Part shown: piece after piece, positions 16,131 to 61,532 of the stretch
How positions within the stretch are numbered: position 1 is the first letter of the stretch
Layout: each line of letters opens with the position of its first letter
IMG/VR virus record: IMGVR_UViG_3300050498_000085
Strand: one strand, 5' to 3'
Length of the DNA stretch: 61,532 nucleotides
Source of the DNA: a virus
Notes under the pieces: model-generated
What the model was told of the DNA's origin: nothing
The model's database searches: none
What the model saw: the letters and a program-made list of their open reading frames with translations, nothing else
Translations under genes and position numbers: made by a program

Positions 16131-16172
16131 GGGCGCGTACCGCCCGACGAACCGACCGAGGGAGCCACCCCG

Positions 16173-21459: not shown

Positions 21460-21475
21460 ATATATGCATAGATAT
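21451..21475. repeat. AT-rich tandem duplication ATGCATTAGATAT / ATGCATAGATAT (contains palindrome TATGCATA)
   Basis: Read directly; overlaps stop of 21229..21459; upstream of 21561. Confidence 0.7.
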
Positions 21476-21560
21476 GCCGAATCAAGCTGAACGCCAGTTC
21501 GTCTGGAGTAGTAGGTTCGATCCGAACGCAATACCCGCCGGAACCAGCCAAGGAGAAGAC

Positions 21561-23312: not shown

Positions 23313-23621
23313 ATGGCCAATGTGAGTCCGGACTACGGACTGTCAAGGGAGACGCGCGCCTATGCCATCTGGCTCGGTGTACGGCTCGGAAAGCACGTCG
23401 CGGAGTCAGACAAGACGGCCGAGATGGACAAGTGGAAGGGGTGGTGCTTTGAGGCGTTCCGCCTCAACGGACTGAACTGGACGCCGGCCGGCTCGGACTT
23501 CGAGTCCCAGGTGCGGTTCATGGTCGACACCATCAATGACGTCCTGCTCGCTGGCTCCACGATGGAGGTTCGCCTAGCCTCCAAGAGTCCGCAGTGGGTT
23601 GCCAACCCTGAGGCCGGCTGA
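23313..23621 (+). CDS. hypothetical protein, 102 aa
   Basis: RBS GGAGGAGAG; ATG 23313 within ORF-track 23157..23621. Confidence 0.7.
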   Translation: MANVSPDYGLSRETRAYAIWLGVRLGKHVAESDKTAEMDKWKGWCFEAFRLNGLNWTPAGSDFESQVRFMVDTINDVLLAGSTMEVRLASKSPQWVANPEAG

Positions 23622-24661: not shown

Positions 24662-25237
24662 ATGCCGAAGGCACGATGGGCAGTCCCGTCCGAAGAGCCG
24701 GAGGACGTCGAGAGCTATGACGTCTATGACGGTGAGAAGCCGCCAGCCGGCGTGTACGCGGTCCGGCTGACCCGGCTCACCGTGAAGGCCAACAAGAACG
24801 ACGACCCGATGCTGAATGGCCTTCTGGTGGTCGCCGAGCCGAAGGGGAGCACCAAGTCCCAGTACAACGGCTACCCCATCTGGTTCAACCAGAACGTCAC
24901 CGAACAGGGCGCGCCGTACGTCAAGCAGTTCCTCGCTGCGCTCGGCATCACCTGGGCCGAGTTCCGGACCAAGACGGTGACCGAGGGCGACATGCCCGAG
25001 CGCAAGGGCGAGCCGGCGACCCGCATCATGAAGATCGGTTCCGTCAAGTTCAACGACGGGAACGAGCCGGCCCTGCGGGTCGCCACCAAGGAGGACAGCT
25101 ACAACAGCGCGCCGAAGCTCTCGGTGGTCCAGTTCATGAAGCCACGCGACCAAGCGAACGAGGAGGACGACGCGGACGAGTCCGGCGACTCGGACGACGA
25201 CGACAGCGCTACCCCGGGCGGCAAGGCGCCCTTCTAG
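24662..25237 (+). CDS. single-stranded DNA-binding protein, T7 gp2.5/DUF669-like
   Basis: Acidic tail ..EEDDADESGDSDDDDSATPGGKAPF with terminal Phe; position after the AAA_24 ATPase (recall of this module). Confidence 0.65.
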   Translation: MPKARWAVPSEEPEDVESYDVYDGEKPPAGVYAVRLTRLTVKANKNDDPMLNGLLVVAEPKGSTKSQYNGYPIWFNQNVTEQGAPYVKQFLAALGITWAEFRTKTVTEGDMPERKGEPATRIMKIGSVKFNDGNEPALRVATKEDSYNSAPKLSVVQFMKPRDQANEEDDADESGDSDDDDSATPGGKAPF

Positions 25238-25243
25238 GGCGCC
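25225..25243 (+). terminator. 8-bp stem-loop GGCGCCCT-tct-AGGGCGCC spanning stop codon TAG 25235..25237
   Basis: Same cassette as 22043..22062. Confidence 0.55.
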
Positions 25244-25262
25244 GAGCGGTCCTGTCGTCCGT

Positions 25263-25304
25263 GGCAGGGTCTTGGGGCGTAGAGCGGCGACCCGAGACCC
25301 TGCC
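25263..25304 (+). terminator. hairpin GGCAGGGTCT ... AGACCCTGCC (10-bp perfect stem)
   Basis: Read directly, 26 nt after the SSB-like stop. Confidence 0.55.
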
Positions 25305-25434
25305 AGTCCGTCTCGCTCCAAACTAGGGGGCACGCCGGTGTGTACGAGGATCGGTCGGAGAGTCTTGCTCCGCGCGCTCGCGCGTAGGCCCCCGCCCGCG
25401 AGGCTCAGGGCTCCAGTACCGCGAGAGAGTTGTG

Positions 25435-25460
25435 ATCACTCCTACGCGCGTAGGAGTGAT
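25435..25460. promoter_or_regulatory. perfect 26-bp palindrome ATCACTCCTACGC|GCGTAGGAGTGAT (operator-like)
   Basis: Verified base by base; lies in the 415-nt non-coding gap before the primase genes; halves recur at 43853..43870, 43906..43923, 43999..44013. Confidence 0.85.
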
Positions 25461-25652
25461 TGCGTTCCGGATGAACTAGGGGTTGTTGTTTCTTCGCGGG
25501 CCGGGGCGCTCGCGCGTACGCGAGAGGCATGAGTATGGCCTGGTCATCAATGCCTCGCGCGCTCGCGCGAGAGCAATTCGCGCCAAGTCGGCCGGTCGTA
25601 GGCTTCCGGTCCCGCTAGTCAAGATCGCGGATTCCCGAGAGGGTGCATATAG

Positions 25653-25958
25653 ATGAATGCCTCACAGCAACGCTGGACCCGGATCGACCCGGACGACGGC
25701 ACCACCCGGCTCGGACCCTCGCCGTCGCAGAAGGAGTTGTGGGGGAATCTGATCACCGGCGACCCTGACCCGCACGGCTGGTACAACGGTTGGTGTCCCG
25801 TCATCGATCCGGGTGGCTCGGACCCGACCCGGCCGAGCGCTCAGTTCAACTTCCTGGCCGGAGCGTTCCGCTGCTTACACGAACCAAGGTGTCACGATCG
25901 ACGGTCGATCTCCCTGAACAACCTTCTGGTTCTGCTTTCCCGGACCAGGAGTGAGTGA
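25653..25958 (+). CDS. stand-alone degenerate primase-type zinc-finger paralog, 101 aa
   Basis: GWCPVIDPGGSDPTRPSAQFNFLAGAFRCLHEPRC aligns with GFCPRHEDPKTSGSPSASFNFNRDLWHCMGC of the next gene. Confidence 0.7.
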   Translation: MNASQQRWTRIDPDDGTTRLGPSPSQKELWGNLITGDPDPHGWYNGWCPVIDPGGSDPTRPSAQFNFLAGAFRCLHEPRCHDRRSISLNNLLVLLSRTRSE

Positions 25959-33113: not shown

Positions 33114-33453
33114 GGCGGCATTCCCAAGTCGTTGCCGCATTTGCGGAGATAGAAACTACAAAGGCGACGAGATCGGATTTTTGGAGGTACCGGATCTTGG
33201 TTGGAAGCCGATTTGTCTACGGTGTTGGTCGCGCGAGCATCCCGAACCAGAGCCAGAGAAACCGAAGACCAATAAGGATTACTTGGAGTGGAGCCGTAAA
33301 CAGCTAGCCAAGCTTGATTCCGAGACGGGTCAGAGATCTGACGACTGGAGAGAGAATGCAAGATTAGGGATACCGGCCTTGATTGATACATTCTCGGACT
33401 ACGAGGCGTATGTGAACTTCTTGCGGAAGAGATGGGAGAGCGGCAAGCGATGA
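33082..33453 (+). CDS. zinc-ribbon protein, 123 aa
   Basis: RBS AAGGGAG; CRICGD..(x20)..CLRCW. Confidence 0.6.
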   Translation: MRREVSRSTRKAAFPSRCRICGDRNYKGDEIGFLEVPDLGWKPICLRCWSREHPEPEPEKPKTNKDYLEWSRKQLAKLDSETGQRSDDWRENARLGIPALIDTFSDYEAYVNFLRKRWESGKR

Positions 33454-36400
33454 AGTACGTATCGCTACACCACCACTCGACCTTCAGCTACATGGATGGC
33501 TTCGGGACGCCGGAGCGACATGTGGAGCGAGCGGTGGAGTTGGGAATGTCGGCGCTCGCGTTGACCGAGCACGGCAACGTCTCGTCCCATGTCCAGCACG
33601 AGAAGTACGCGACCAAGGCCGGAATCCAGCCCATCTTCGGCTTGGAGGCTTACACCGCGCCCGACCTACAGACCCGGCGAAAGTGGCACCTCACGATCCT
33701 CGCGGAGACGGCCGAGGGTTACCGCAACCTGATGAAGCTCGTGACGCGCTCGTATGCCGAGGGTTTCTACCAATACCCAACCATCACCGGACCGATGTTG
33801 GCCGAGCACGCGGACGGCCTCATCGTCCTTTCGGGATGCGCCGACTCCAAGCTGGCTTGCGACCTGCTAGGCGGGAAGGGCGTGAACCCCCACCCTCCCG
33901 ACCTACCCGCAGCCGAGCGCACCGCCTCCGCGTTCAAGGCGTTGTTGGGTGACCGGTACTTCATCGAGGCCCAGCAATTCCCGGAGTTGGAGCGGACGCG
34001 CACCCTCAATCCGATCTTCGAGGACATCGCTCGCCGGTTGAAGATCCCGCTAGTGGCGACGGCCGACGTTCATTACCCGATGCCCGACGACAATGAGATG
34101 CAGGTGATTCTCCATGCGGCCGGCCGAGGGACAAACAACGTCGCCCAACAGGTTGAGTCCTGGGAATATGACATCCGCCTCACTCATCCTGCTTCTGATG
34201 CAGTCGTGTTGGAGCGGCTACGTGGCACTGGTCTTAGCCGTCGCGCTGCTGCTTTTGCGATTGCTTCGACAGAGGACATCGCCGCTCGCTGCCGCATCGA
34301 GCTACCCAAGGTCGACCGACTTCGGTATCCGCTCCCAGACGGTCAATCTTCACGAGACCTCATATGGTCTTGGCTCCGCGACGGCTGGAGCTATCGCACG
34401 CGCAGCAACCGCCGAATACAACAGCATGAAGCGGAGTATGTTGCGCGTCTGAAGTACGAGATGGACCTGATTACCGACAAGGATTTCATCGACTACTTCC
34501 TGATGTTGAGCGATGCGGTCCGCTGGGCGAAGGATCGCGGCATCCCGGTCGGGCCGGCTCGTGGCTCGGCTGCGGCCTCCCTCACCTGTTACCTCTTGCG
34601 GATCACCGAGGTTGATCCACTCCAATTCCCCATGATGTACTTCGAGCGTTTCATCGCTCACAACCGGACCGACGTCCCGGACATTGACCTGGACTTCTCG
34701 GATGAGCGCCGGGACGAGTTGCGGCAGTACTTGGTCGAGAAGTACGGTGCGGACCGCGTTGGCAACATCGGTACGTACACGAAGTACAAGGGCAAGAATG
34801 CGCTCATCGACGTCGCCCGGGTGAATGGGGTGCCGGACTACGAAATCAAGGTCATCAAGGATCTGATGATTGACCGAAGCTCCGGCGACGCGCGAGCTGA
34901 GGGCACGCTCGAAGACACCATCGCGATGTTCCCCCAAGCGCAAGCCGTCATGGAGAAGTTCCCAGAGCTATGGAAGGCTCTGCGGTTGGAGGGGAACTAT
35001 CGAGGCTCTAGCGTCCACGCCGCTGGGCTCGTAGTGGCCAACGAGCCGCTGACTGATGCGGTCGCAACATACGAGCGCACGAGCGGTACCGGCACCCACC
35101 GCGTGACACGTCAGGTGGTCTCGGCCGACAAGTACGATGCGGAGCACTTGGGCCTGATGAAGATCGACGCGCTTGGACTCTCGACAATGGGGATGATCCA
35201 GCACTCGCTCGACATCGTCGGGATGACCCTGGATGAGTTGTACACCGAGACGGCCGACCTGGACGACCAGACCATCATCCAAGCCTTCCGCGACGGCGAT
35301 GTAACGGGCATCTTCCAGTTCGGCGGAGGCGCGACCCGCATCGTCAACGCGGATGTCAAGCCAGATACATTCCTGGAGTTAGCCGACATCAACGCGCTCT
35401 CGCGCCCCGGACCGCTTCACTCTGGATCGACTCAGGACTACATCGACATCAAGCACGGCCGGAAGCGTCCGCCCACCCAGCACCCGGCCGTCGCGAAGAT
35501 CACATCCTGGACCAAGGGCCAGATCATCTATCAGGAGCAGATCCTGGCGGCAACGCTAGAGATCGGAGATATGGGATGGGTGCACGCCCAGGAGATTCGC
35601 AAGATTGTTTCGTTGAAACACGGCGTGGCCGCGTTCAATATGAAGTTCCCGATGTTCGCCGAGGGTGCTCGCCGGCTCCATGGGATGACGGAGGAGGAGG
35701 CATCCGACATCTGGCGCCGGATGGCGACGGCCGGGACCTACGCATTCAACATAGCGCACAGCGTGTCATACGCGATGCTGGCCTATTGGACGATGTGGTT
35801 CAAGGTTTATCACCCGGCAGCATTCTACGCAGCCTCACTACGTAAGTTTCCTGATGAGCAATATTGGCTATTGCGCGATGCCTTGCGGCACAGTATTGAC
35901 ATTCTCCCGCCCGATCCAAATCGCAGCCCGATCCACTGGGCGGTTGAGGGCACGTCCGTCCGAAGCGGACTGTTGACGCTCCCTGGGGTCGGTGAGGCGC
36001 TCGCAGCGGAGATCATCCGGGACCGGAAGGTGCGCGGGTCGTTCGACAATTGGGGGGAGTTGATACGAGTCAAGGGCATCGGGCCGGCGAAGCTCGCGCC
36101 GATTCTCGATCGCGCTGGCGATGACCCGTTCGGGATCTATGCAGTAGAGCGCAAGATCCAGACCGTTCGTGATTGGCTCCGCTCCAACCCGGGCATGCCC
36201 TACCCAACGCACAAGGGGACGGAGATCCCAACCGAGGGTGACCACGACATTGTGTTCCTCGGGTTACCGGTCAAGCGCGACTCTCGTGACGTCATCGAGG
36301 ATGAGCGCGGCCAGACCGGCGAGGACTATGAGACCATTCGCGGCCGGATGAAGGACCCGGACAAGATCAAGCGGATGATCGTGCACGTGGTCGACGACAC

Positions 36401-36578
36401 CGACACTACCGTGTACCTACGCTGGAACCGTTGGAACTTCGCTAAGGGCAATACTGAGCGAGCACTATGGGACATGAGGCTTGGAGAGGACCTGATACTG
36501 GTACGGGGTCGCAAGCGTTCCGGCTTCGGGACTTCCATACAGGTCAAGGACTTCTGGATCATCAATCCGGACGACTGA
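33450..36578 (+). CDS. dnaE: DNA polymerase III alpha subunit (DnaE-type) with N-terminal PHP domain, 1042 aa
   Basis: LHHHSTFSYMDG, LTEHGN, ATADVHYP (PHP); ..PVGPARGSAAASLTCYLLRITEVDP.., DIDLDF, ..HAAGLVV.. polymerase core. Confidence 0.95.
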   Translation: MKYVSLHHHSTFSYMDGFGTPERHVERAVELGMSALALTEHGNVSSHVQHEKYATKAGIQPIFGLEAYTAPDLQTRRKWHLTILAETAEGYRNLMKLVTRSYAEGFYQYPTITGPMLAEHADGLIVLSGCADSKLACDLLGGKGVNPHPPDLPAAERTASAFKALLGDRYFIEAQQFPELERTRTLNPIFEDIARRLKIPLVATADVHYPMPDDNEMQVILHAAGRGTNNVAQQVESWEYDIRLTHPASDAVVLERLRGTGLSRRAAAFAIASTEDIAARCRIELPKVDRLRYPLPDGQSSRDLIWSWLRDGWSYRTRSNRRIQQHEAEYVARLKYEMDLITDKDFIDYFLMLSDAVRWAKDRGIPVGPARGSAAASLTCYLLRITEVDPLQFPMMYFERFIAHNRTDVPDIDLDFSDERRDELRQYLVEKYGADRVGNIGTYTKYKGKNALIDVARVNGVPDYEIKVIKDLMIDRSSGDARAEGTLEDTIAMFPQAQAVMEKFPELWKALRLEGNYRGSSVHAAGLVVANEPLTDAVATYERTSGTGTHRVTRQVVSADKYDAEHLGLMKIDALGLSTMGMIQHSLDIVGMTLDELYTETADLDDQTIIQAFRDGDVTGIFQFGGGATRIVNADVKPDTFLELADINALSRPGPLHSGSTQDYIDIKHGRKRPPTQHPAVAKITSWTKGQIIYQEQILAATLEIGDMGWVHAQEIRKIVSLKHGVAAFNMKFPMFAEGARRLHGMTEEEASDIWRRMATAGTYAFNIAHSVSYAMLAYWTMWFKVYHPAAFYAASLRKFPDEQYWLLRDALRHSIDILPPDPNRSPIHWAVEGTSVRSGLLTLPGVGEALAAEIIRDRKVRGSFDNWGELIRVKGIGPAKLAPILDRAGDDPFGIYAVERKIQTVRDWLRSNPGMPYPTHKGTEIPTEGDHDIVFLGLPVKRDSRDVIEDERGQTGEDYETIRGRMKDPDKIKRMIVHVVDDTDTTVYLRWNRWNFAKGNTERALWDMRLGEDLILVRGRKRSGFGTSIQVKDFWIINPDD

Positions 36579-38667: not shown

Positions 38668-40194
38668 GTGCCTCTCCTGGAGCCGACCGGCCTACCGCAG
38701 TGGTACATCGACTGCTGTAACGAGATGAGTGCCCGCGCCAGCGCTCTGGTCTCTGAGGCCGACAACGCGTCCAACGTCCTCTTCGGACGGTCGCTGTACG
38801 GCGACCGGGTGTACGTCGGCTCGCGCGACGTGGATGACGACCGCGTCACGAACCTGCTGCGGGATGTCGCGTTCAACCGGCATTCGATGAACGACGGGCA
38901 GCACGTCTCGCCACTCGACAACGGCCGACTCCAGGTCGGGACGGATGGGATCATCGTCAAGCTGGTCCAGGGCCTCGATGAGGCCGCATTCAAGCGCACG
39001 CTGGACATGGCGACCCGCGCGACGATCGGGATGGACCTCTCGCAGCCGATCCCGGGCGACTGGGAGCCATGCCCCGAGTTCACCGCCGCGCGGGCGAGGC
39101 AGCTCGACTCGCCGGCCGATCCGTCCAACCGGGGTGACGTGATCGAGCTTCGCTGCGGCCATGCCAGTCACCGATCGACCACGATCAACCCAGGCTGGCA
39201 GGGCGAGGAGACCTCGGTGGGCCTCGCCCTGCTATGGGAGGGACAGGTGGCCGGGGGCGAGTGGGAGGAGATGCTGAAGGGCGGACTCCAGACCGCGCTG
39301 GAGTCGCAGGTGATCGTGTTTGCCGTCTCCGGCATCTCGCGTACGTGCACCCACCAGCTCGTGCGCTCCCGTCGGGCCGCCTTCCACCAGCAGTCGCAGC
39401 GCGCGAGTTTCTACGGTGTCGCGCCGGAAGTCCGGATGCCCGAATCGGTCTGGCTCAACCCGCGCGCTCGGCGGGCCGCACTGGACGCCTATGCTGCCGC
39501 ACAAGAGGCATACCGGATCATCTGCGAGGAGGACATCAGCTACCAGGACGCGCGATTCGTTCTCCCGGAAGGGACGACCAACTACATCCTCTGTGAGTAC
39601 AACGTCAAGGAGTTCCGCGATGTCTTCGCCTATCGCGGTTGCTCGATGTTCTCCTGGGAGATCGTCCATGTGATGCGGGAGATGCGGCGCCTCTTGGTCG
39701 AGGCCCATCCATTCCTCGCGGACTTGATCAAGATCAGCTGCGAGAAGACCAGCCGGGCAAAGGATCGCGACCCTGGATATGCGACGCTTCCGGGCGGGGA
39801 GGGCGCGGCCCACACATGTACCTTCCAGGGGTGGGAGCGCGTCGATGGGCAATGCGACTTCCCGTGGGCGCGCGACACCAACCGCACGTTCCGCTCGGCC
39901 ACGTACGAGATCGGGCGGAAGCCGGAGACCTACAGTCCGGCGGGACTCCTTTCGGATGCCGAGGCGAAAGAGCGAGCAGCTGAGCTTCTGAAGCGTCGTC
40001 GTCCCGGATCATCTCATCCCGCAGCCCAAGCCATCGCGAGGCACCCGGAGGAGGATGGGTTGGCCCACGAGTTGAGGGAGATGGCGCGTTCGGATGGAAC
40101 CATCGGCGCCGGAGACCCCGGGGAGCCACGCGTGCCCTCCACGGACTCCGAGGCTCGCCGGCCGGACCACTACCCGGGGCGAGGTGGGTGGTAG
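38668..40194 (+). CDS. divergent ThyX-like (flavin-dependent thymidylate synthase family) protein with N- and C-terminal extensions, 508 aa
   Basis: ..VSGISRTCTHQLVRSRRAAFHQQSQRASF.. against the canonical ThyX ..RHRxxSxxxxSxR signature; ..ARFVLPEGTTNYIL.. downstream block. Confidence 0.7.
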   Translation: MPLLEPTGLPQWYIDCCNEMSARASALVSEADNASNVLFGRSLYGDRVYVGSRDVDDDRVTNLLRDVAFNRHSMNDGQHVSPLDNGRLQVGTDGIIVKLVQGLDEAAFKRTLDMATRATIGMDLSQPIPGDWEPCPEFTAARARQLDSPADPSNRGDVIELRCGHASHRSTTINPGWQGEETSVGLALLWEGQVAGGEWEEMLKGGLQTALESQVIVFAVSGISRTCTHQLVRSRRAAFHQQSQRASFYGVAPEVRMPESVWLNPRARRAALDAYAAAQEAYRIICEEDISYQDARFVLPEGTTNYILCEYNVKEFRDVFAYRGCSMFSWEIVHVMREMRRLLVEAHPFLADLIKISCEKTSRAKDRDPGYATLPGGEGAAHTCTFQGWERVDGQCDFPWARDTNRTFRSATYEIGRKPETYSPAGLLSDAEAKERAAELLKRRRPGSSHPAAQAIARHPEEDGLAHELREMARSDGTIGAGDPGEPRVPSTDSEARRPDHYPGRGGW

Positions 40195-42919: not shown

Positions 42920-42988
42920 TTTCGCCGGGTCGGGTCGGCACGTCCGAATGCGGGCGGCCGTCCTGATGTGTCCATAGAGGGAGTCGCC

Positions 42989-43636
42989 GTGGCAAGAGTC
43001 GCTGGGTGGGAGATCGAAGACACACCCTACATCACCGCCATCTGGTTGGACCCGGGAGGGACGACCGGGTGGTGCGTCATGTCCGTACTCCCGGAGGCTC
43101 TGTCTGATCCGGATATGCGCATTCTGGACAACATATATCACTGGACGTCGGGCCAGATCGTTGGCCCGGAACCGGATCAGGCGGACGAGATCGCTGAGTT
43201 GATCACGGCTTGGCCCGGCGCTCTAGTCGGCATCGAGAGCTTCGAGTTACGGCAGTTCCGGAAGGACCGGGATCTGCTCTCTCCGGTCCGGATCGGCGCC
43301 ATGGTGGAGTGGGCTGCGCTACGTGGCGGGGGAGCCGGTGTCCGGGCGGACGCTCCCCCGGCCGTGGTCGAATGGCAATCGCCGTCGCTCGCCAAGAAGA
43401 CCGCATCTGACGACTCCCTCAAGGAGTGGGGCCTGTACCGGCGGGAGGGTGGTGAGGAGCACGCCCGAGACGCTACCAGGCACGCCATCACTTTCTACCG
43501 GCGTTGTAAGTCCGGGGCGCAGGGCTCCAAGGCCGGCGAGACCCGAGCGCGGCACCTACGGGCGCGAGCATGGCCGTACCGCTTTGCGGAGGACGAGGGG
43601 CCGGACGGCTCGGCTACGGGTGCGGGCATTGGCTAG
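42989..43636 (+). CDS. RuvC-like Holliday-junction resolvase
   Basis: AIWLDPGGTTGW (Asp), VGIESFE (Glu), EEHARDATRHAI; GTG 42989 five nt after GAGGGAG (ORF track offers 42968). Confidence 0.8.
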   Translation: MARVAGWEIEDTPYITAIWLDPGGTTGWCVMSVLPEALSDPDMRILDNIYHWTSGQIVGPEPDQADEIAELITAWPGALVGIESFELRQFRKDRDLLSPVRIGAMVEWAALRGGGAGVRADAPPAVVEWQSPSLAKKTASDDSLKEWGLYRREGGEEHARDATRHAITFYRRCKSGAQGSKAGETRARHLRARAWPYRFAEDEGPDGSATGAGIG

Positions 43637-43748
43637 CGGTGGAACGGGAGGGCATAGCGTGGGCGTCTCGCTCGTTCGGGCGGTCCGGCGGACGGGAGAT
43701 GCCCGCCGGACCTTCCCCGGCGCGCCCCCGGTGCAAAGGGCGCCTGGA

Positions 43749-43774
43749 ACGACAAGGGGTCGCAGCCTTGTCGT
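43749..43774 (+). terminator. hairpin ACGACAAGG-ggtcgcag-CCTTGTCGT
   Basis: 9-bp perfect stem, 113 nt after the RuvC-like stop. Confidence 0.45.
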
Positions 43775-43852
43775 CCGCGCGTAAGCGTACGCGCTCGCGC
43801 GTCCGTCCCAACCGGCGCGAGGCACAGAGGGCTTGGGTCGTTCGGATTGGTG

Positions 43853-43870
43853 ATCACTCCTACGCGCGTA
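43853..43870 (+). promoter_or_regulatory. operator half-site ATCACTCCTACGCGCGTA (left arm)
   Basis: 21 nt (43851..43871) identical to 25433..25453. Confidence 0.8.
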
Positions 43871-43905
43871 GCTCGCGCGATACGACGCGAGGCGGACATG
43901 TTCCT

Positions 43906-43923
43906 TACGCGCGTAGGAGTGAT
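43906..43923 (-). promoter_or_regulatory. operator half-site TACGCGCGTAGGAGTGAT (right arm, reverse complement of 43853..43870)
   Basis: 20 nt (43906..43925) identical to 25443..25462; arms separated by 35 nt. Confidence 0.8.
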
Positions 43924-43926
43924 TGT

Positions 43927-43941
43927 GATTTTTTGAAAATC
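43927..43941. promoter_or_regulatory. AT-rich inverted repeat GATTTT-ttg-AAAATC
   Basis: Most AT-rich stretch I saw in the genome, directly after the right operator arm. Confidence 0.5.
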
Positions 43942-43998
43942 CATGTTAGTCGTGCCGCGCGGGTTGGGGCCAGCGAGCGCGTACGCTCCCGGGTCGGT

Positions 43999-44013
43999 CG
44001 CGCGTAGGAGTGA
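43999..44013 (-). promoter_or_regulatory. third operator half-site CGCGCGTAGGAGTGA, overlapping the RBS of 44027
   Basis: 15-nt match to the right arm; 13 nt upstream of ATG 44027. Confidence 0.7.
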
Positions 44014-44026
44014 GGGGCGGGTCGTC

Positions 44027-44383
44027 ATGCAGATCAGCGAGGCGCAAGCCAAGTCGGCCGAGATCGGTCTAGAGCCGGGATCATTCATCCGGGTTGATAT
44101 CTCGGCTGAAGTGGAGAAGGTTGGCCGGAGTGGAGCGATGCGACTCCGGGATACTGGGTTCAAGTCGGAGAGTATGGTCAGCTCGCGTCATGTCGCGGAT
44201 GGTGACTTGAAGATCCGAAAGGACCGAGACGAGTTCACCGGGACTCTTCACGGCTACTTTGAGGAGTGGCTGGGTGGGTCTACCGGGGTGGCACTTCGGA
44301 TCTCTGGGAATGGCGTGGTCTCCCGGATATCTGTGCATCACATCACCGACTTCCGTATGTTGAGTCCTACCCTCGGCGCATGA
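44027..44383 (+). CDS. hypothetical protein, 118 aa (first gene of the late operon)
   Basis: ATG 44027 in ORF-track 43943..44383; the upstream part is operator DNA. Confidence 0.7.
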   Translation: MQISEAQAKSAEIGLEPGSFIRVDISAEVEKVGRSGAMRLRDTGFKSESMVSSRHVADGDLKIRKDRDEFTGTLHGYFEEWLGGSTGVALRISGNGVVSRISVHHITDFRMLSPTLGA

Positions 44384-44685: not shown

Positions 44686-45258
44686 TTGACCAGGGACAAA
44701 GATCAGGAGGGCAGGCCATCAGCCGCTGAGAAGTCGCGTGATGGGCTCCCGGACAACGTCACGACGCTCACACCGCGAGAGCGGTCGAGCGCAGTCGGCC
44801 GGGCCAATTTCGCCAAGGGCACCGAGGCCGCAAAGGAGCGCGGACGTGTGCCGCGTGATCCCGACTACGTGAGCCGTCGTCAGCAGTTCGTGGATGGCAC
44901 GTTGAAGGTCGAGGATCTGGAAGACGAGGAGTTGGAGAAACTCCAGTTCAAGGATCGTCACGGAAACTTCACAGGGCGCCCTCCTGCCCTCACGACCGCG
45001 CAGCAGCGCCAGCTCCATGTCGAGTGGCGAAAGCGCATTGCCCGACGTTTCGAGGCCGAGGCCGCTGCGGCGATGGAGGTCATGAAGTCCATCATGAACT
45101 CCAGGGGCGCCAAGGATACGGACCGCCTACGTGCGGCCGAGATGATGCTGGCGCGTGCTATTGGTCGAGAGCAGCAGACGGTCGTGAATGTGAATGCGAC
45201 CTGGGAGGACTTCGAAGAGGGCACGATTGTGGAGATCAACCGGGAGGATGTCGGATGA
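44686..45258 (+). CDS. terminase small subunit-like protein (putative), 190 aa
   Basis: TTG start from ORF track; ..DTDRLRAAEMMLARAIGRE.. resembles small-terminase C-terminal pattern (recall); position upstream of the packaging genes. Confidence 0.5.
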   Translation: MTRDKDQEGRPSAAEKSRDGLPDNVTTLTPRERSSAVGRANFAKGTEAAKERGRVPRDPDYVSRRQQFVDGTLKVEDLEDEELEKLQFKDRHGNFTGRPPALTTAQQRQLHVEWRKRIARRFEAEAAAAMEVMKSIMNSRGAKDTDRLRAAEMMLARAIGREQQTVVNVNATWEDFEEGTIVEINREDVG

Positions 45259-46522: not shown

Positions 46523-46744
46523 ATGGCATTCCAGGAAGTCGGCAAGCTGTTCCATTCCCAGGATGGGCTCTACTTCGGACGCACGGAGGACGGTTCGGTG
46601 TACGTCCGATGGAATAGCAATGAGACCACACTACCCGAGGCAAGCTGGGCGAGCGTTGTAGCCTCGGTATCGGCGCGCGGCGACAACTCGAAGACGTGGG
46701 CCGAGGCTTGCGACTTCCACAATGGTTTCGAGGATCATTCATGA
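46523..46744 (+). CDS. hypothetical protein, 73 aa
   Basis: ORF track. Confidence 0.65.
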   Translation: MAFQEVGKLFHSQDGLYFGRTEDGSVYVRWNSNETTLPEASWASVVASVSARGDNSKTWAEACDFHNGFEDHS

Positions 46745-46851
46745 GGTTCCCGCCCGATGGCATAGGCAAGGTCGACATCCTAGTGGTCCTGATAGGACTG
46801 TTGGCCTTGATCGCGATTATGGCCGTGCTCTTCACTCGGATTCCCGGATGA
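46741..46851 (+). CDS. very small membrane protein, 36 aa (below ORF-track cutoff)
   Basis: ATGA overlaps at both ends; VDILVVLIGLLALIAIMAVLF; translated by hand. Confidence 0.4.
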   Translation: MRFPPDGIGKVDILVVLIGLLALIAIMAVLFTRIPG

Positions 46852-47153
46852 CCGGGGCGCGGCTCGAAGCTCGGCTGACGGTATCGGGCAATCACTGCAC
46901 CGTTCACGGATACCACTGGCCTGAGCCGCTTCGGACCGTCAAACACCACATTCTTCCGGAGAGCGAGGGAGGGAAGGCGACCCCGGACAACCTTGTCCTG
47001 GTGTGCGATACCGGGCACTACAGTATTCACCACATCCTCGACATAGCGTTGGCGACCGGGAAGCTCCCCGCGCTCGGCACCCGCAAGGAGCGCGAGATCG
47101 CATCCGAGGGTTACCGGCGGATCAAGGCCAAGGCCAACAAAGCTCCGAAGTAG
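46848..47153 (+). CDS. HNH endonuclease, 101 aa (terminase-associated)
   Basis: ..VKHHILPESEGGKATPDNLVLVCDTGHYSIHH..; directly upstream of the large terminase. Confidence 0.85.
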   Translation: MTGARLEARLTVSGNHCTVHGYHWPEPLRTVKHHILPESEGGKATPDNLVLVCDTGHYSIHHILDIALATGKLPALGTRKEREIASEGYRRIKAKANKAPK

Positions 47154-47159: not shown

Positions 47160-47309
47160 GTGACCGAGCTGCCACTTTGGTTCTGGGCCATCCCCGGTAC
47201 CGTCTTCCTCTTGACGGCAGCGCTGCCGCTCATATCGCGAGCGCTGTACGGGAGGAGGGTGTGGGGCGATGCCGAAGATTCTGGCGGTCAGTCCGAAGAG
47301 GACGTTTGA
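47160..47309 (+). CDS. possible small membrane protein, 49 aa, overlapping the terminase start by 41 nt
   Basis: GTG directly after a motif copy; VTELPLWFWAIPGTVFLLTAALPLISRALYGRRVWGDAEDSGGQSEEDV; translated by hand; weak. Confidence 0.3.
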   Translation: MTELPLWFWAIPGTVFLLTAALPLISRALYGRRVWGDAEDSGGQSEEDV

Positions 47310-48657
47310 GGCCGTTGGATACTACCCACACCCGGGCCAGGCCACGATCCACCGCTCAAAGGCGCGTCATCGGGTCGCCTCCTGCGGTCGCCGGTACGGC
47401 AAGACGAACGTGGGCGGGGCCGAACTTCTGCTGGAGCAACGCCGCACCCGGCTTCTCCTGCCACAGCTCTACCACACCGGAAAGCGCCGGGAGTTCTGGA
47501 TCGTGGGGCCGGAGTACACGGATGCTGAGAAGGAGTTCCGTTGGCTCTATGACCGGTTGAGCGCTCTGGGCGCTCCATTCGACCGACCCGGCACGTACTA
47601 CTCGGCCCATGACGCGGACTTGGTACTCTCCATGTACGGCGGGAAGTTCCTGGTTCAAGGCAAGTCCGCAAAGCATCCGGAGCGCCTTGTGGGTGAGGGT
47701 CTGGCCGGCGTGATCATGGCCGAGGCCGCGAAGCAGCGCGAGACAACGTGGACCAAGTACATCCGGCCGACACTTGCCGATGACCTAGGTTGGAGCCTCC
47801 ATACTTCTACCCCAGAGGGCCGCAATTGGTTCTATGACTTGTGGGTTCGTGGTCAGTCCGACCGATTCGCGGAATGGGAGAGCTGGCGCCGACCGGCCTG
47901 GCTCAACTCGTATGTGTACCCGCTCGGTATCCGGGACCCAGAGGTCAAGTCACTCCGAGAGGATCTGACCGTGGAGAGCTTCAACCAAGAGATCGCGGCT
48001 ATGTTCACGGAGTTTGCCGGCCGTGTGTTCAATGAATGGGATGACGAAGTACACCTGAAGGATCTCAGCTACAACCCGGCCTGGCCGGTCTATGGTGCTT
48101 GCGACTACGGCTTCACCAATCCGTTCGTCTGGCTCGTGATCCAAGTCTCCCCGGTCGACGGTACGGTGTATGTCATCGATGAGTTCTATCAGGACGGGCT
48201 CACGATCGATGAGATAGCCGCCGCGTTGTATTCCCGGCCCGGATTGGTGCCTACGGCCATGCGGGAGTTCTTTCCGGACCCGGCGTCCCCCGGAGACTCC
48301 CGGGTGCTGGAGCAGCGCCTACGGCTGCGCTCGCGGGGCGGTACCGGTGGGGAGTTGAATGACCGGCTGCGTTTGATTCGCGCCGCGCTTAAGGTCCGCA
48401 ACCGGCGTTTGCCCAACGGCGACTCGGAGCGGCGGCCGAAGCTGTTTGTGGATCGTACCAAATGTCCCAATCTCGTCCGTGAAATGAACATGTACCGGTA
48501 CCCCAAGAAGAAGGGCGAGGTTGACAAGAATTCACCCGAGCTACCCATGAAGAAGGATGACCACGCGCCGGAGGCACTTGGCCGTGCATTCATCGGTTTG
48601 TTTGGCCGGGGCGGTGCTGGTCGCGCGTCGGTCGAGGATGCCGACCTAGCGGCCTAG
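47269..48657 (+). CDS. terminase large subunit, 462 aa
   Basis: Walker A ..ASCGRRYGKTNVG..; RBS GGGAGGAGGG; followed by portal. Confidence 0.9.
   Translation: MPKILAVSPKRTFEAVGYYPHPGQATIHRSKARHRVASCGRRYGKTNVGGAELLLEQRRTRLLLPQLYHTGKRREFWIVGPEYTDAEKEFRWLYDRLSALGAPFDRPGTYYSAHDADLVLSMYGGKFLVQGKSAKHPERLVGEGLAGVIMAEAAKQRETTWTKYIRPTLADDLGWSLHTSTPEGRNWFYDLWVRGQSDRFAEWESWRRPAWLNSYVYPLGIRDPEVKSLREDLTVESFNQEIAAMFTEFAGRVFNEWDDEVHLKDLSYNPAWPVYGACDYGFTNPFVWLVIQVSPVDGTVYVIDEFYQDGLTIDEIAAALYSRPGLVPTAMREFFPDPASPGDSRVLEQRLRLRSRGGTGGELNDRLRLIRAALKVRNRRLPNGDSERRPKLFVDRTKCPNLVREMNMYRYPKKKGEVDKNSPELPMKKDDHAPEALGRAFIGLFGRGGAGRASVEDADLAA
47291..47307 (+). repeat. dispersed motif copy GTCCGAAGAGGACGTTT, inside the terminase N-terminus (reads SPKRT there)
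   Basis: Read directly. Confidence 0.85.
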
Positions 48658-48687: not shown

Positions 48688-50160
48688 ATGACATCACCGG
48701 GCGCAGCCGCGTTCACGCCATACAGCACGGTGCGCTCGTTGCTCGGTACGCTGCCCGAATGGATGGCGCTGCTTGACGCGGAGCGGACTCGGAGCTACGC
48801 GCTCTATGAGCAGATGTACTGGAACGTCCCCGACACTTTCAAGCTTGTTCTTCGCGGTACTGATGCATCACCAATATATATTCCAACTGGTCGTCAGATT
48901 GTTGACACGGTTGACCGGTATGTGGGCGCCAACTTCGGCTGGACCATTGTCGGCGCCGAGGGAACTGAGGCCGAGTCGGCTCGTGCCGCATTCCAAGCCT
49001 TGTTCAACCGTGAGCGCTTCATGTCGTGGTACTCGGCCAACAAGCTCTTCGGGATCATGCGGGGAGACTGGGCCTGGCACGTGTTCGCGAACGCCGACAA
49101 GCCGGAGGGTGCGCGGATCTCCATCCGCGCCGTGGACCCGGGGTCCATGTTCAAGATCACCCATCCGGAGGACGTCGACCGGGTCATGGGCATCGACCTG
49201 ATCGAGAACTTCACGGATGGTGACGACGAATTCGTCAAGGTCCAGCGCTACAGCAAGGGCGCTAACCCGTACGACCCGGCTACCGAGGATGGCCTGATCT
49301 GGTCCGCCTCCTTGATCTACACGCTGGATGACTACGGCGATCCGAAGGCGACGAAGACCATCCGCCCGGCCTCGCCTCTCCCGGCGCAGATCACGGCTCT
49401 GCCGGTCTACCACATTCCTCACAATGAGCAGCCGGGGAATCCCTTTGGATCGAGCGAGTTGCGGGGCCTGGAACGAGTCATGGCCGCCGTGAACCAGGCA
49501 ATCTCGGATGAGGAGTTGGCTCTGGCGCTCGAAGGTCTGGGCGTCTACTCGACTGACGCGGGAGCGCCGATCGACCGCGCGACCGGCCGGACGACGACAT
49601 GGAAGCTCGGCCCGGGGTCGGTGGTCAACCGGCCGGCCGGCACGACCTTCGAACGGGTTAGCGGGATCTCCACAGTTCAGCCCTACATCAATCACTTGGA
49701 CTGGTTGATCAAGGCGCTCCGCGAGACGTCCGGGGCGAGCGACTCGGCCATGGGCAAGGTGGACGTTTCTGTTGCAGAGTCGGGCATTTCGCTCGTCATG
49801 CAGCTATCCCCCATTCTCGCGAAGGCGGCCAAGTACGACACGACCATCGGCGACATCCACCGTCAGATGTTCTTTGACCTCAAGGGATTCCTGGAGGCTT
49901 ACGAAGGGATCGGGACCGGCCTGGCGCTGGTGGAGCCGATATTCGGGGCGAAGCTTCCCACGAACAGGCCCCAGGAGATCACGAACATCCTGGCGATTGT
50001 TGAGGCGACCGGGATGATGGAGTGGGGGATTCGCGAGCTGGCGAAGCTCGGATACGAGTTCACTCCAGAGGACATTGCCGCCGCGCTCGCGGACCGGCAA
50101 GCGCGCAATACCGATCCGTTTGCGGCTCGTGCTGCTGCGGAAACAGGAGGGGAAGAGTAG
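48688..50160 (+). CDS. portal protein, 490 aa
   Basis: Size and position after the large terminase; RBS GGAGGGG. Confidence 0.85.
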   Translation: MTSPGAAAFTPYSTVRSLLGTLPEWMALLDAERTRSYALYEQMYWNVPDTFKLVLRGTDASPIYIPTGRQIVDTVDRYVGANFGWTIVGAEGTEAESARAAFQALFNRERFMSWYSANKLFGIMRGDWAWHVFANADKPEGARISIRAVDPGSMFKITHPEDVDRVMGIDLIENFTDGDDEFVKVQRYSKGANPYDPATEDGLIWSASLIYTLDDYGDPKATKTIRPASPLPAQITALPVYHIPHNEQPGNPFGSSELRGLERVMAAVNQAISDEELALALEGLGVYSTDAGAPIDRATGRTTTWKLGPGSVVNRPAGTTFERVSGISTVQPYINHLDWLIKALRETSGASDSAMGKVDVSVAESGISLVMQLSPILAKAAKYDTTIGDIHRQMFFDLKGFLEAYEGIGTGLALVEPIFGAKLPTNRPQEITNILAIVEATGMMEWGIRELAKLGYEFTPEDIAAALADRQARNTDPFAARAAAETGGEE

Positions 50161-51528: not shown

Positions 51529-52293
51529 ATGAAGCTGAAGATGCGTCCTCGTCCGCTCGCGTGGATCGACGGTCGGCCGGTGTGGCCGTTCGCCGGTGCC
51601 GAGGGTGAGGGCGAGGGCGACAACGCGACCGGTACACAGGGCGGTACTGGGGGCGCCGGCTCCACACAGAGCGGTGGTACGTCGGATGGTGGGACGTCGG
51701 ACAAGAAGGACGACGCACAGAGCGGCGGTCAGTCCTCTTCGGACGACAAGGTGGAGCGCTCCGAGTTCGAAGCGATCAAGCAGAAGATGATCGCTGCGGA
51801 CCGGCGTGCGGAGGCCGCAGAGAAGAAGGCCAAGGAGTACGAGGACAAGGACAAGGGCGAGCTGGAGAAGGCCACAGAGCGGGCCGAAGCAGCCGAGAAG
51901 CGCGTCCAGACCCTCGAAGACGAACTGGCCGACATGCGGCTCAACCAGGCGATGTTGACCGATCCCAACTACGGCGCGGACAAGTGGCACGACGTCGAGG
52001 ACGTCCTGACGCGACTTCGCAAGGCCGTGAAGGACGACGGGTCATCGGTGACCATCGCCGAGGACGGCACTGTCAAGGGCGTCTCGGCGTTCCTGAAGCA
52101 GCTGGCGACCAACAAGAAGTACCTGCTCAAGACCGCAGCGCAGAACGCGGGTGGGGGAGCTTCGGGCGACCCGGCCAACGGCGATCGGCGCGGCGGTGGT
52201 GGCGGCTCGGACGGCGCGGGCACCGGCAAGTCCGGAGTCAGCAAGGAGCGTCGCGCGAAGCTCGCTGAGACCTACCCATCCATCCGACGCTGA
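51529..52293 (+). CDS. scaffolding protein (putative), 254 aa
   Basis: Gly-rich N-terminus, then a charged coiled-coil-like region; position before the capsid genes. Confidence 0.7.
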   Translation: MKLKMRPRPLAWIDGRPVWPFAGAEGEGEGDNATGTQGGTGGAGSTQSGGTSDGGTSDKKDDAQSGGQSSSDDKVERSEFEAIKQKMIAADRRAEAAEKKAKEYEDKDKGELEKATERAEAAEKRVQTLEDELADMRLNQAMLTDPNYGADKWHDVEDVLTRLRKAVKDDGSSVTIAEDGTVKGVSAFLKQLATNKKYLLKTAAQNAGGGASGDPANGDRRGGGGGSDGAGTGKSGVSKERRAKLAETYPSIRR

Positions 52294-61127: not shown

Positions 61128-61532
61128 ATGGGAGCTAGGTCCTGGATCGTGAATCGTCTTCGCGGGGATGCGACATTCACGGGCATCCTCGGGACGGTGG
61201 AGGGAGTAGCTCCAGCCGGGCGCATTGTCTCGTCTGGGTCCATAGGGATACCGGGGACCACAAACGCCGAGATCAAGCGTCCCTTTGTCGTCGTGCGAGC
61301 GAATCTGGCCGGCCGCGCCTTGAGCGGGGCCGACAAGCGCTATCCGGCCCAGCCCTGGATGTTGTGGATGCACGATTCGCCCGGCTCATATGAGGCCAAC
61401 ATCGCCCCCCTCCTCCGGCGCGCCGCAGTTCTCCTGGATGGACAGCCCTCTGTAGACATGGGCGATGGCGAGTGGTTGATCAGTTGCGCCTGGGAAGTCG
61501 ATTCGCCTGACCTCTATGACGACGGGCTGGGG
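61128..61532 (+). CDS. tail terminator / tail completion-like protein, 5' part; no stop in window, continues at 1..175
   Basis: ATG 61128 one nt after upstream TGA; frame stays open to the window end and through the terminal repeat. Confidence 0.6.
   Translation, partial: MGARSWIVNRLRGDATFTGILGTVEGVAPAGRIVSSGSIGIPGTTNAEIKRPFVVVRANLAGRALSGADKRYPAQPWMLWMHDSPGSYEANIAPLLRRAAVLLDGQPSVDMGDGEWLISCAWEVDSPDLYDDGLG
61406..61532. repeat. 127-nt terminal direct repeat, right copy (identical to 1..127)
   Basis: See 1..127. Confidence 0.95.

Follow-up and report, generated by a model that had tools for sequence, protein, structure and literature searches.

Two intergenic regions of the window, as we call the whole 61,532-nucleotide stretch of DNA from an uncultured phage analysed here (IMG/VR record IMGVR_UViG_3300050498_000085), share a dyad-symmetric element that is, judged by its copy number and conservation, a real, conserved cis-element. 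The 15-mer TCACTCCTACGCGCG occurs in exactly five copies within these 61.5 kb, and all of them lie in the gaps IG1 (25238-25652) and IG2 (43637-44026), which head a primase-helicase/PolIII operon and a terS-HNH-terL packaging operon, respectively. The reading we prefer, to which we give about an even chance, is that of an operator-type candidate binding site at two regulatory gaps, read by one phage-encoded protein that would couple both transcription units.

To our knowledge, almost nothing is known about gene regulation in lytic actinobacteriophages. Several of their clusters contain conserved intergenic repeats for which neither a function nor a binding protein has been identified (PMC7302621). 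In this context the element provides a clean test case, with two loci per genome that are placed exactly at the heads of the replication and the packaging operon, and with a natural allelic series in at least six related genomes that defines the recognised bases. Finding the binding protein, which is invisible to domain searches, would offer a handle on the switch from replication to virion production in widespread soil and rhizosphere phages. The practical value is modest and would consist in an orthogonal operator-regulator pair for high-GC hosts.

The confinement of the element to the two gaps is statistically clear. No further exact copy of the 15-mer exists anywhere in the window, where about 1e-4 would be expected by chance according to our own estimate, and all ten genome copies of CGCGCGTA fall inside IG1 and IG2. 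When up to three mismatches are allowed, the 16-bp dyad TCCTACGCGCGTAGGA has four matches, every one in these gaps; shuffled sequences gave a mean of 0.38, and none of 100 shuffles reached four. The core can be written as TCCTACG-CG-CGTAGGA, and an extended half-site, CAATCnYTCCTACG, is common to related phages. IG1 holds one perfect dyad and IG2 three near-complete ones (mismatches 2, 2 and 3). An earlier note on this DNA had counted five half-sites at two operon heads. Five copies are found there and nowhere else, but the arms at 44 kb each retain the whole centre TACGCGCGTA and are thus near-complete dyads (14/16 each) instead of bare half-sites; the set is better described as one perfect and three imperfect dyads. 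The IG2 sequence is base-for-base identical in the JGI and the ENA assembly and is therefore not an assembly artefact, and its split layout, described below, is the same in three independent assemblies.

The genes that border or follow the two gaps are:

25653-25958, + strand: stand-alone paralogue of the primase zinc ribbon (101 aa), first gene after IG1
25951-28803, + strand: primase-helicase (950 aa), second gene after IG1
42968..43636, + strand: RuvC-like Holliday-junction resolvase, last gene before IG2 (PHROG 1981, there of 'unknown function')
44027..44383, + strand: first gene after IG2 (118 aa), with no homologue outside the window phage
44686-45258: terS-like gene, downstream of IG2
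46722-47153: HNH gene, downstream of IG2
47269-48657: terL gene, downstream of IG2

Each site thus stands at the head of a gene module, as the earlier note had proposed, with primase-helicase, PolIII and ThyX following at 25.4 kb and the terS-like gene, HNH, terL and portal at 44 kb. Each also comes after strong GC-rich hairpins 3' of the last upstream gene. The zinc-ribbon paralogue and the primase-helicase are both conserved in the relatives L053, L215, L216, L217, L218, L219 and L221. As the protein encoded from 44027 is without homologues, it provides no anchor for finding relatives. The gene at 42968..43636 was considered as a candidate late activator and rejected because of its predicted fold, which is that of RuvC: the predicted structure has a pLDDT of 86.8, and its six best PDB fold matches are all RuvC (E ~2e-5). 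PDB sequence searches with four conserved unknown proteins of the window returned no matches.

IG1 contains the perfect dyad together with weaker copies and neighbouring elements:

25262..25305, + strand: strong GC-rich hairpin directly after the stop codon of gene 24662-25237
25376..25389, + strand: GCTCGCGCGTAGGC, an auxiliary right half-site that precedes the dyad centre by 66 bp
25432..25462, no strand assigned: IG1 dyad, containing the 26-bp perfect palindrome ATCACTCCTACGCGCGTAGGAGTGAT at 25435-25460
25484..25521, + strand: GC-rich block (CGCGGG..GGGGC..GCGCGTACGC) downstream of the dyad, common with IG2
25508..25528, + strand: GCTCGCGCGTACGCGAGAGGC, an auxiliary half-site with a small hairpin element that follows the dyad centre by 66 bp

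The core of this dyad lies at 25440-25455 with its centre at 25447.5, and the weaker right half-sites CGCGCGTA at 25379 and 25511 flank that centre at exactly 66 bp on each side. Alignment of the GC-rich block with its IG2 counterpart scores 34 (shuffle mean 19.4, maximum 32). Similarly, the element at 25508..25528 and the splitting DNA of IG2 are related, with a score of 30 (shuffle mean 15.2, maximum 26). The upstream hairpin resembles a terminator that lacks a U tail, and it marks the operon boundary; substitutions relative to the 97%-identical L001 at 25273 and 25297 preserve its pairing via G-U. In the same comparison the IG1 dyad has no substitution and the rest of the 415-nt gap has 11, and IG1 is conserved at least as well as the flanking genes.

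The layout of IG2 is more elaborate:

43682..43775, + strand: set of three GC-rich hairpins that follows the stop codon of gene 42968-43636 and marks the boundary of the operon
43850..43873, no strand assigned: left dyad, in which TCCTACGCGCGTAGCT (43858-43873) matches 14/16 of the core; centre 43865.5
43871..43905, + strand: the 35 nt that split the dyad, with a hairpin of their own, CTCGCG-CGATACGA-CGCGAG
43903..43925, no strand assigned: right dyad, in which CCTTACGCGCGTAGGA (43903-43918) matches 14/16 of the core; centre 43910.5
43927..43941, no strand assigned: AT-rich inverted repeat GATTTT-TTG-AAAATC, 3' of the right dyad
43944..43986, + strand: GC-rich downstream block, the counterpart of 25484-25521
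43994..44013, + strand: third site, in which TCGGTCGCGCGTAGGA (43994-44009) matches 13/16 of the core; its right arm extends to GTGA

The two sides of the 25.4-kb palindrome do recur here, as had been noticed before: 43850-43871 (GTGATCACTCCTACGCGCGTAG, 22 nt) is identical to 25432-25453 and 43906-43925 (TACGCGCGTAGGAGTGATTG, 20 nt) to 25443-25462. Perfect 18-nt arms at 43853-43870 and 43906-43923 are spaced by 35 nt, and the AT-rich inverted repeat directly follows the right arm; in the relatives L101 and L104 the corresponding side of the IG2 dyad carries a GATTTT..CATG element. The centres of the left and right dyads are 45 bp apart. The third site, centred at 44001.5, lies 91 bp from the right dyad and has a weaker IG1 counterpart, GTCGTAGGCT, near 25595. 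Its copy of the repeat, CGCGCGTAGGAGTGA, is located at 43999-44013 ahead of the ATG at 44027; it had been described as overlapping the Shine-Dalgarno region but in fact abuts it, the ATG being preceded by GGAG at 17 nt and by GAGGGG at 9 nt.

Relative to the IG1 dyad, the split with its duplicated TACGCGCGTA corresponds to a 45-bp insertion. The IG2 dyad is unsplit in L053, L096, L101, L104, L215 and L221, the split form is absent from IG2 of every relative examined, and the intervening DNA resembles the element 60 nt downstream of the IG1 dyad. The split form is specific to the window phage, and its most probable origin is an insertion or duplication that placed the neighbouring GC-rich hairpin element inside the dyad centre. 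Since it is not conserved and its intervening DNA resembles this IG1 neighbour, the suggestion that different arm spacing gives different affinity or timing stays speculation. The 80%-identical relative L227 was considered for dating the split and proved uninformative, as its contig terminates with the first CG motif, 171 nt past the stop codon.

A comparison with relatives shows that the two sites vary together within a genome. Six related metagenomic phages (PolIII 60-66% identical) have a lineage-specific dyad or CG-rich motif that is common to their own IG1 and IG2. L053 carries TTCCTACGCGCGTAGGA(G/A) in both gaps, with TCGCGGGAGCGCGCGA at +31 in both, and L215 carries GTACGCGCGT(A/C)C within a 150-nt module common to both. 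In L221 the arms of TTTCCTACG-GGA-CGTAGGAAA are kept in both gaps around a 3-nt centre that is asymmetric and inverted between them. CG-rich motifs common to both gaps are present in L224 and L225. L216 has a different dyad, GTTCCTGCAGGAAC, with the centre CTGCAG and related sequences in both gaps; a sigma-70-like TTGTAG-17-TATATA just upstream leaves its dyads in an operator-like position. When IG1 and IG2 of the window and of L053 (about 60% protein identity) are aligned four ways, the sole long invariant run is TCCTACGCGCGTA, extended by GGA in three of the four. The dyads of the window, L053, L219, L221 and L104 all retain the half-site TCCTACG. It is the centre that varies, being CG, GGA or, in L096, L101 and L104, extended by an extra A, while the TCCTACG arms remain unchanged. 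A variable centre between constant arms is a pattern typical of half-site recognition.

Such co-variation of two sites within a genome favours one genome-encoded, sequence-specific DNA-binding factor. It is what one would expect of a binding protein that co-evolves with its sites, and not of an RNA hairpin as such or of a host factor that stays fixed. The proposal of a single factor made in the earlier note thus gains real support from the paired dyads of L053, L215 and L221 and from the paired CG-rich motifs of L224 and L225.

No DNA similarity of the window to cultured phages was found, and an exact 24-mer search of viral contigs matched only a near-identical strain. The 14-mer TACGCGCGTAGGAG has 38 loci in viral contigs, mostly due to chance or within coding DNA, with L043 (the same contig as L053) and L047 as the only true relatives. 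TCACGCGCGTGA in L058 was set aside because it lies inside a likely coding region, and a search for relatives with only the RuvC-like protein confirmed none. Most of the more distant primase relatives (30-44% identity) have no dyad upstream of the primase gene, so the element is not general to that primase family. In Wollypog, the nearest cultured relative, both gaps are AT-rich and contain no CG-rich palindrome.

According to the reading we prefer, one phage-encoded protein, a dimer or a higher oligomer, would recognise the dyad in both gaps, and its binding would couple expression of the replication unit to that of the packaging and structural unit. The protein would act either as an activator, at promoters out of reach for host RNA polymerase on its own, or as a repressor of these promoters early in infection. 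With one perfect site and weak half-sites at exactly -66 and +66 bp in IG1, and three imperfect sites 45 and 91 bp apart in IG2, the arrangement would permit cooperative binding or looping. We infer from the sites that a protein binds, that it is encoded by the phage and that it acts on transcription. Neither gap contains a recognisable sigma-70-like promoter, which fits factor-dependent promoters; one picked by eye around TTGTGA/TAGGAG in the window was rejected, as its spacing of 15 nt is wrong and its -10 poor. Helix-turn-helix, ribbon-helix-helix, sigma, WhiB and other regulator domains were searched for in about 70 window proteins with Pfam or PHROGs, and none was detected. Phylogenetic profiling of the proteins encoded at 21-48 kb of the window likewise revealed none restricted to dyad-bearing relatives. 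The regulator is possibly too divergent for profiles, or a host protein. Against a regulator speaks that a 14-nt half-site (about 30 bp in total) is long for a simple repressor dimer and fits initiators or recombinases equally well, and that the position of IG1, immediately ahead of the primase-helicase gene, is a classic one for an origin.

Dyad sites common to several promoters are known from other phages, such as those of Mu C and Mor, P2 Ogr/P4 Delta (TGT-N12-ACA) and phi29 p4 (A2b/A2c, A3). There, a single phage protein sets the timing of middle and late expression by binding one and the same inverted repeat at two or more promoters. The mechanism proposed here would be the same. However, their proteins are identified and their promoters mapped, and we claim no membership for the present element.

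Other explanations have to be weighed against this one. The bipartite origin of satellite phage P4 consists of ori and crr, bound by the alpha primase-helicase, and its 8-bp iteron occurs in many direct and inverted copies. By analogy, the dyads could be replication-initiator sites in a bipartite origin that brackets the replication module, where the primase-helicase or the zinc-ribbon paralogue would assemble and melt adjacent AT-rich DNA; we consider this unlikely but a serious rival. The window resembles P4 in having the same short repeats at two loci kilobases apart, one of them close to the primase-helicase gene, and differs in having one long dyad per locus in place of a many-copy iteron. 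IG1 is immediately upstream of the genes for the zinc-ribbon paralogue and the primase/MCM-like helicase, auxiliary copies accompany the long, dyad-symmetric site at regular spacing, and a co-evolving initiator explains the co-variation of the sites as well as a regulator does. Both genes are also present, with diverged sequences, in the relatives that cover the region. An AT-rich element is available in the form of the region's most AT-rich 15 nt directly after the IG2 right dyad, and the dyad of L096, L101 and L104 is embedded in an imperfect palindrome of 60 bp that is flanked by A/T tracts on either side; yet the stretch in the window is only 15 nt long and is missing beside the IG1 dyad. 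Moreover, the two sites are 18 kb apart, each at an operon head after terminator-like hairpins, for which control of transcription is the simpler explanation. The dyad is mostly absent upstream of the gene in the primase relatives at 30-44% identity and its distribution agrees with the terL/structural lineage no less well than with the primase lineage. GC skew is uninformative on an origin, since all genes are on one strand. If an origin were involved after all, the element would locate it, and a bipartite one would be an architecture not yet described for actinobacteriophage-like siphoviruses. We also hold it unlikely that the paired dyads are, instead of operators, either halves of a bipartite origin or a DNA-processing site bracketing the replication module, each loaded by the MCM-like primase-helicase or the zinc-ribbon paralogue, with a CG-alternating centre that would be easily distorted or extruded. 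Cutting and joining of DNA more generally, whether at a telomere-resolvase target, a cos/pac signal or a cruciform cleaved by the RuvC-like resolvase, seems very improbable to us. The sequence TACGCGCGTA equals the central 10 bp of the phage N15 telRL, and with the telRL sites of N15, PY54 and phiKO2, the target of TelN, the element shares this centre as well as a long palindrome with flanking inverted repeats. A paper on N15 TelN and telRL does contain TACGCGCGTA (PMC12624138), and this literature match prompted the telomere-resolvase candidate, which was rejected. Unlike telRL, the element is present at two loci per genome, which would split the chromosome in two, and its centre is not conserved in L221 (GGA) or L216 (CTGCAG); no Telomere_res, integrase, tyrosine-recombinase or other recombinase domain was detected in any scanned protein. 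The match is a coincidence of a short CG-rich palindrome and not a sign of membership. IG2 does occupy the usual cos/pac place upstream of terS, HNH and terL, but a second copy upstream of the primase gene would be senseless for packaging. The RuvC-like resolvase is encoded immediately upstream of IG2, but such resolvases are common in phages and the family is also present in relatives where no CG-rich dyad was found. The contig of L227 breaks exactly at the motif, as assemblers do at any repeat.

Two further explanations stay closer to the mRNA and its promoter. The conserved sequence could itself be a promoter element for host RNA polymerase with a phage-specified sigma-like or appropriator protein, the dyad symmetry being secondary. 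Conservation of the right flank is asymmetric, with GATTGTG next to the right arm at the two sites of the window and the two of L221. CCGCGAGAGA is found 9-11 nt upstream of TCCTACG in IG1 of the window and IG2 of L053, a GC-rich block recurs at a similar downstream distance in all copies, and the lack of sigma-70-like promoters in the gaps would be accounted for. We nevertheless find this quite improbable: perfect symmetry over 16-26 bp is kept through lineage-specific changes in both arms, which is needless for a promoter, the asymmetric centre of L221 is inverted between the gaps while the arms stay constant, and no sigma-like gene was detected among the scanned proteins. The palindromes may also act in RNA, where hairpins at the operon borders would serve in termination, RNase III processing or mRNA stabilisation; to this we attach little probability. 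In IG2 an alternative pairing of the left arm, with the third copy, could hide the ribosome-binding region. Compared with shuffled controls, the folding of both gaps is far more stable (z = -5.8 and -4.7). When G-U pairs are counted, the two IG2 arms give a stem of some 21 bp (-48 kcal/mol) with UUUUUU after it, and G-U pairs can lengthen the stem on the sense strand only. The left-arm:third-copy duplex reaches -31 kcal/mol versus -37 for left:right. The RNA stem or cruciform suggested in the earlier note is thus energetically possible, but it leaves the two-site co-variation and the invariant core unexplained: a hairpin needs neither identical sites within a genome nor an invariant core, and no compensatory core drift is seen. 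The stems of relatives measure only 8-9 bp and lack a U tract, stronger hairpins already exist 3' of the upstream stop codons, and the run of seven T that adjoins the split arms of L047 is on the antisense side of the genes. A T6 tract follows only the split IG2 copy, across a loop of 35 nt, and neither IG1 nor the relatives have one; a pattern scan for intrinsic terminators found none on the + strand, and Rfam 15 gave no match at gathering score in the whole window. We disfavour both the RNA-hairpin and the telomere-resolvase reading.

By its sequence features and placement, the candidate operator is of the same general kind as the conserved intergenic inverted repeats of actinobacteriophage-like phages, and constitutes a new example with a different architecture. 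Microbacterium Cluster EG phages contain an 18-bp intergenic inverted repeat, GATCAACCNNGGTTGATC, and Cluster O mycobacteriophages contain 17-bp intergenic repeats; both types have 8-10 copies per genome, which sit in short gaps and precede start codons by 14-22 bp (PMC7302621). The present element shares with them that it is a phage-specific, near-perfect intergenic palindrome, kept within a group despite diverged flanks and presumed to be regulatory. In contrast to them, it is limited to two loci per genome. The gaps concerned measure about 400 nt and separate modules, the next start codon is 25-205 nt away, and a longer half-site (about 14 nt) is combined with weaker auxiliary copies. Cluster K mycobacteriophages and Cluster EF Microbacterium phages possess SAS, a 13-bp asymmetric motif at ten or more start codons, and ESAS, imperfect inverted repeats upstream of SAS (PMC7302621). 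Judged by the primase (42% identity), the nearest cultured relatives belong to Cluster EF. The third copy at 43999-44013 resembles SAS in adjoining a ribosome-binding site, although only this one copy does so and the sequences are unrelated. A separate SAS-like repeat is also present in the window.

The window's first and last 127 nt (1-127 and 61406-61532) overlap exactly, and the genome, of ~61.4 kb, was thus assembled as a closed circle. A k-mer length of 127 is common in assemblers, and the overlap gives no reason to assume a terminal repeat in the phage itself. GC content is ~62%, and the + strand holds nearly all convincing ORFs. Among cultured phages, Arthrobacter phage Wollypog (primase 44%, terL 52% identical) comes closest, together with Microbacterium phages of Cluster EF (primase 42%), and therefore the host is probably an actinobacterium. 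The tape measure gene is followed by a block mostly of unknown genes that includes those for an SNF2 helicase, a nuclease and a Sak4-like ATPase. Two intergenic gaps head the primase-helicase/PolIII operon (IG1) and the packaging operon (IG2):

2824-5559, tape measure
18795-21002, SNF2 helicase
22252-23286, PD-(D/E)XK nuclease
23621-24658, Sak4-like ATPase
25238-25652, IG1 gap
25951-28803, primase-helicase
between primase-helicase and PolIII alpha, UDG
33432-36578, PolIII alpha
38668-40194, ThyX
42968-43636, predicted RuvC-like gene
43637-44026, IG2 gap
44686-45258, terS-like gene
46722-47153, HNH, in its usual position beside terL
47269-48657, terL
48688-50160, portal-sized ORF
51529-52293, scaffold

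The ThyX domain occupies residues 200-348 of an unusually long 508-aa protein (38668-40194), whose N- and C-terminal portions have no assignment; this long form is also present in relatives. The genome's lowest-GC stretch (8800-10200, 0.55) contains, in the gap after the minor-tail genes, the best sigma-70-like match of the window (TGGACA-19-TATGAT, 8864-8894). A 193-aa protein (21474-22055) has an A/K/E/P-rich C-terminal tail (AAKAAKAEAKAAEPAKATKAAKASK...) like those of histone H1 or actinobacterial HU, and is possibly a non-specific DNA-binding protein.

Both gaps carry copies of a palindromic site, or dyad. Exact copies of TCACTCCTACGCGCG lie at 25436+, 25445-, 43854+, 43908- and 43999-, with no further exact copy in the window, in agreement with the earlier note, which had confined five copies to the two operon heads and whose coordinates are all correct. 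The 16-bp core TCCTACGCGCGTAGGA has four matches with up to three mismatches, every one in IG1 or IG2 (shuffle mean 0.38), and all 10 genome copies of CGCGCGTA fall inside these gaps. In IG1 the dyad (25432..25462) contains a perfect 26-bp palindrome, and weaker right half-sites lie on both sides at exactly 66 bp from its centre. The arms at 44 kb had been read as half-sites; their positions stand, but each keeps the full centre TACGCGCGTA, and IG2 therefore consists of two near-complete dyads (43850..43873 and 43903..43925, each matching the core at 14/16, centres 45 bp apart) plus a third (43994..44013, 13/16) 91 bp further on. This third copy lies beside the ribosome-binding region in front of the ATG at 44027 and does not overlap it as had been proposed. 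The IG2 sequence is the same in two other independent assemblies. Strong GC-rich hairpins open both gaps directly after the upstream stop codon, and a GC-rich block lies ~35 nt downstream of the dyad in each.

Related metagenomic phages (L numbers) show the same layout with their own alleles. In L001, a strain 97-98% identical to the window, IG1 is the same apart from 11 differences in 415 nt, none of which falls in the dyad. A phage with ~60% protein identity, represented by one contig (L002, L053 and L086), carries TTCCTACGCGCGTAGGAG upstream of the primase operon, TTCCTACGCGCGTAGGAA in the 516-nt gap ahead of the packaging operon, and TCGCGGGAGCGCGCGA at +31 after the dyad in both; when its two gaps and those of the window are aligned, the sole long invariant run is TCCTACGCGCGTA, followed by GGA in three of the four sequences. 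Further loci of ~23 kb, centred on PolIII homologues, were fetched to cover both gaps where contigs allowed. Here too both gaps share GTACGCGCGT(A/C)C within a common 150-nt module flanked by inverted repeats GAAAGTTG / CAACTTTC in L215, TTTCCTACG-GGA-CGTAGGAAA with a 3-nt centre in L221, GACGCGCGTAGG and CTTCCC-TAC-GGGAAG-type dyads in L224, and CGCGTACGCG and CTATACGCGAGGGA in L225. L216 (PolIII 66%) departs in sequence: its dyad is GTTCCTGCAGGAAC / ATGCTGCAG, related forms of which stand in both gaps (3043-3658 and 17004-17206). The outer arms are TTCC/GGAA as in L053- and L104-type dyads, and a clear sigma-70-like TTGTAG-17-TATATA lies just upstream of the dyad in IG2. L219, whose contig covers IG1 but not IG2, shows CTCCTACGCGCGTAGGAG and a weaker site 79 bp downstream. 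Relatives found through terL (L096, L101, L102/L104) carry TTC(T/C)TC- or TTCC-TACGCGCGTA-A-GGAA ~1.7 kb upstream of terL, within a 60-bp imperfect palindrome with A/T tracts. Aligning all copies reveals a long half-site, CAATC(A/T)(C/T)TCCTACG, common to the window and L221.

In L227 (1857-2027), an 80% identical relative, the contig stops exactly at CCTACGCGCGTACGCGCGT, 160 nt past the resolvase stop codon. Assemblers probably break at the repeated motif, and such breaks may hide dyad sites in fragmentary metagenomes. The more distant L061 has an 18-nt GAAAGGTCTAGACCTATG (palindrome AGGTCTAGACCT) at 9414-9431 and 20987-21004, two positions separated by 11.5 kb. A 500-nt gap (21000-21500) downstream of the L061 primase gene is packed with GGTTAC(C) repeats in either orientation and resembles an iteron array.

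Compared with the IG1 dyad and all relatives' IG2 dyads, the window's IG2 has 45 extra bp, comprising 35 nt and a second TACGCGCGTA. In alignment, the 35 nt resemble a small hairpin element at 25508-25528, whose normal place is ~60 nt downstream of the dyad. Because the extra DNA is related to this element and the IG2 dyad is unsplit in every relative, the split is, judging from these comparisons, derived and peculiar to this strain: by rearrangement, a single perfect site became two 14/16 sites, which may have altered affinity or timing, as the earlier note proposed. Split arms occur elsewhere in the more distant L047, between the SNF2 and nuclease genes.

These patterns point to a protein, sequence-specific and probably oligomeric, that recognises the dyads in double-stranded DNA and evolves along with them, since the arms are kept while the centre may change, dyad symmetry persists through lineage-specific changes and, most importantly, both sites within a genome vary in concert. 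Such lineage-specific alleles would not arise with a fixed host factor. Action in RNA is suggested by the window's IG2 copy, with a stem of ~21 bp (-48 kcal/mol) followed by U6, but stems are short and lack a U tract in IG1 and the relatives, Rfam gave no match, and hairpins need no match between two loci. A promoter element is made less probable by the strict symmetry and by L221, whose two gaps carry the centre in opposite orientations between unchanged arms. The strongest rival is a bipartite replication origin like that of P4, suggested by the place of IG1 next to the primase-helicase gene and by a long, symmetric site with auxiliary copies; against it, both sites lie at operon heads and most related primase genes are without such a dyad upstream. 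The literature match of TACGCGCGTA to telRL, the target of N15 TelN, is a coincidence, as no telomere-resolvase domain was found in the scanned proteins, each genome has two sites and the centre varies in relatives.

Control of transcription is favoured because both sites follow terminator-like hairpins and head the replication and packaging modules, and no sigma-70-like promoter was found in IG1 or IG2. One factor co-regulating both operons, as first suggested from the sequence, is thus the best-supported explanation, given within-genome co-variation and position. We put it at about an even chance because promoters could not be located, the ~70 window proteins scanned yielded no regulator domain, and no protein encoded at 21-48 kb is confined to dyad-bearing relatives. 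The first gene after IG1 (25653-25958) encodes a candidate DNA binder, a stand-alone protein of 101 aa that is paralogous to the zinc ribbon at the N terminus of the neighbouring primase-helicase (pairwise E = 2e-4) and is kept at this position in seven relatives. The 42968-43636 protein was ruled out as a late activator, its predicted structure (pLDDT 86.8) matching RuvC Holliday-junction resolvases. Its family, PHROG 1981, is listed as of 'unknown function', and Pfam gave no match; as it carries the DPGGTTGW motif together with conserved E, H and D residues, and RuvC proteins are the best six PDB fold matches of its AlphaFold model, it is predicted to be a RuvC-like resolvase, which would provide a function for this widespread phage family.

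Conserved intergenic repeats are a recognised yet unexplained feature of actinobacteriophages, among them SAS/ESAS in Clusters K and EF, inverted repeats of 17-18 bp in Clusters O and EG, and motifs of 18-30 bp in Clusters EC and EI (PMC7302621). The window element is of this general kind with an architecture of its own: it differs from the named types in copy number and distance to start codons, their defining features, and combines long half-sites and auxiliary copies with two loci in each genome, both heading modules. Its value lies in a clear two-site design and a natural allelic series, usable to find the binding protein. At the 5' end of a second, free-standing HNH gene in the early region (12480-12905), the right arm recurs in degenerate form as GCGCGTAGGAGGGG (12489-12502). 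A separate 20-nt repeat, AGGGAGCCACCCCGATGACC (12905-12924 and 16159-16178, with an 85% copy at 15154-15173), resembles the start-associated sequences of Cluster K and EF phages. At two genes, with starts at 12919 and 16173, it spans the ribosome-binding site, start codon and first codon; at the gene starting at 15168 it nearly does.
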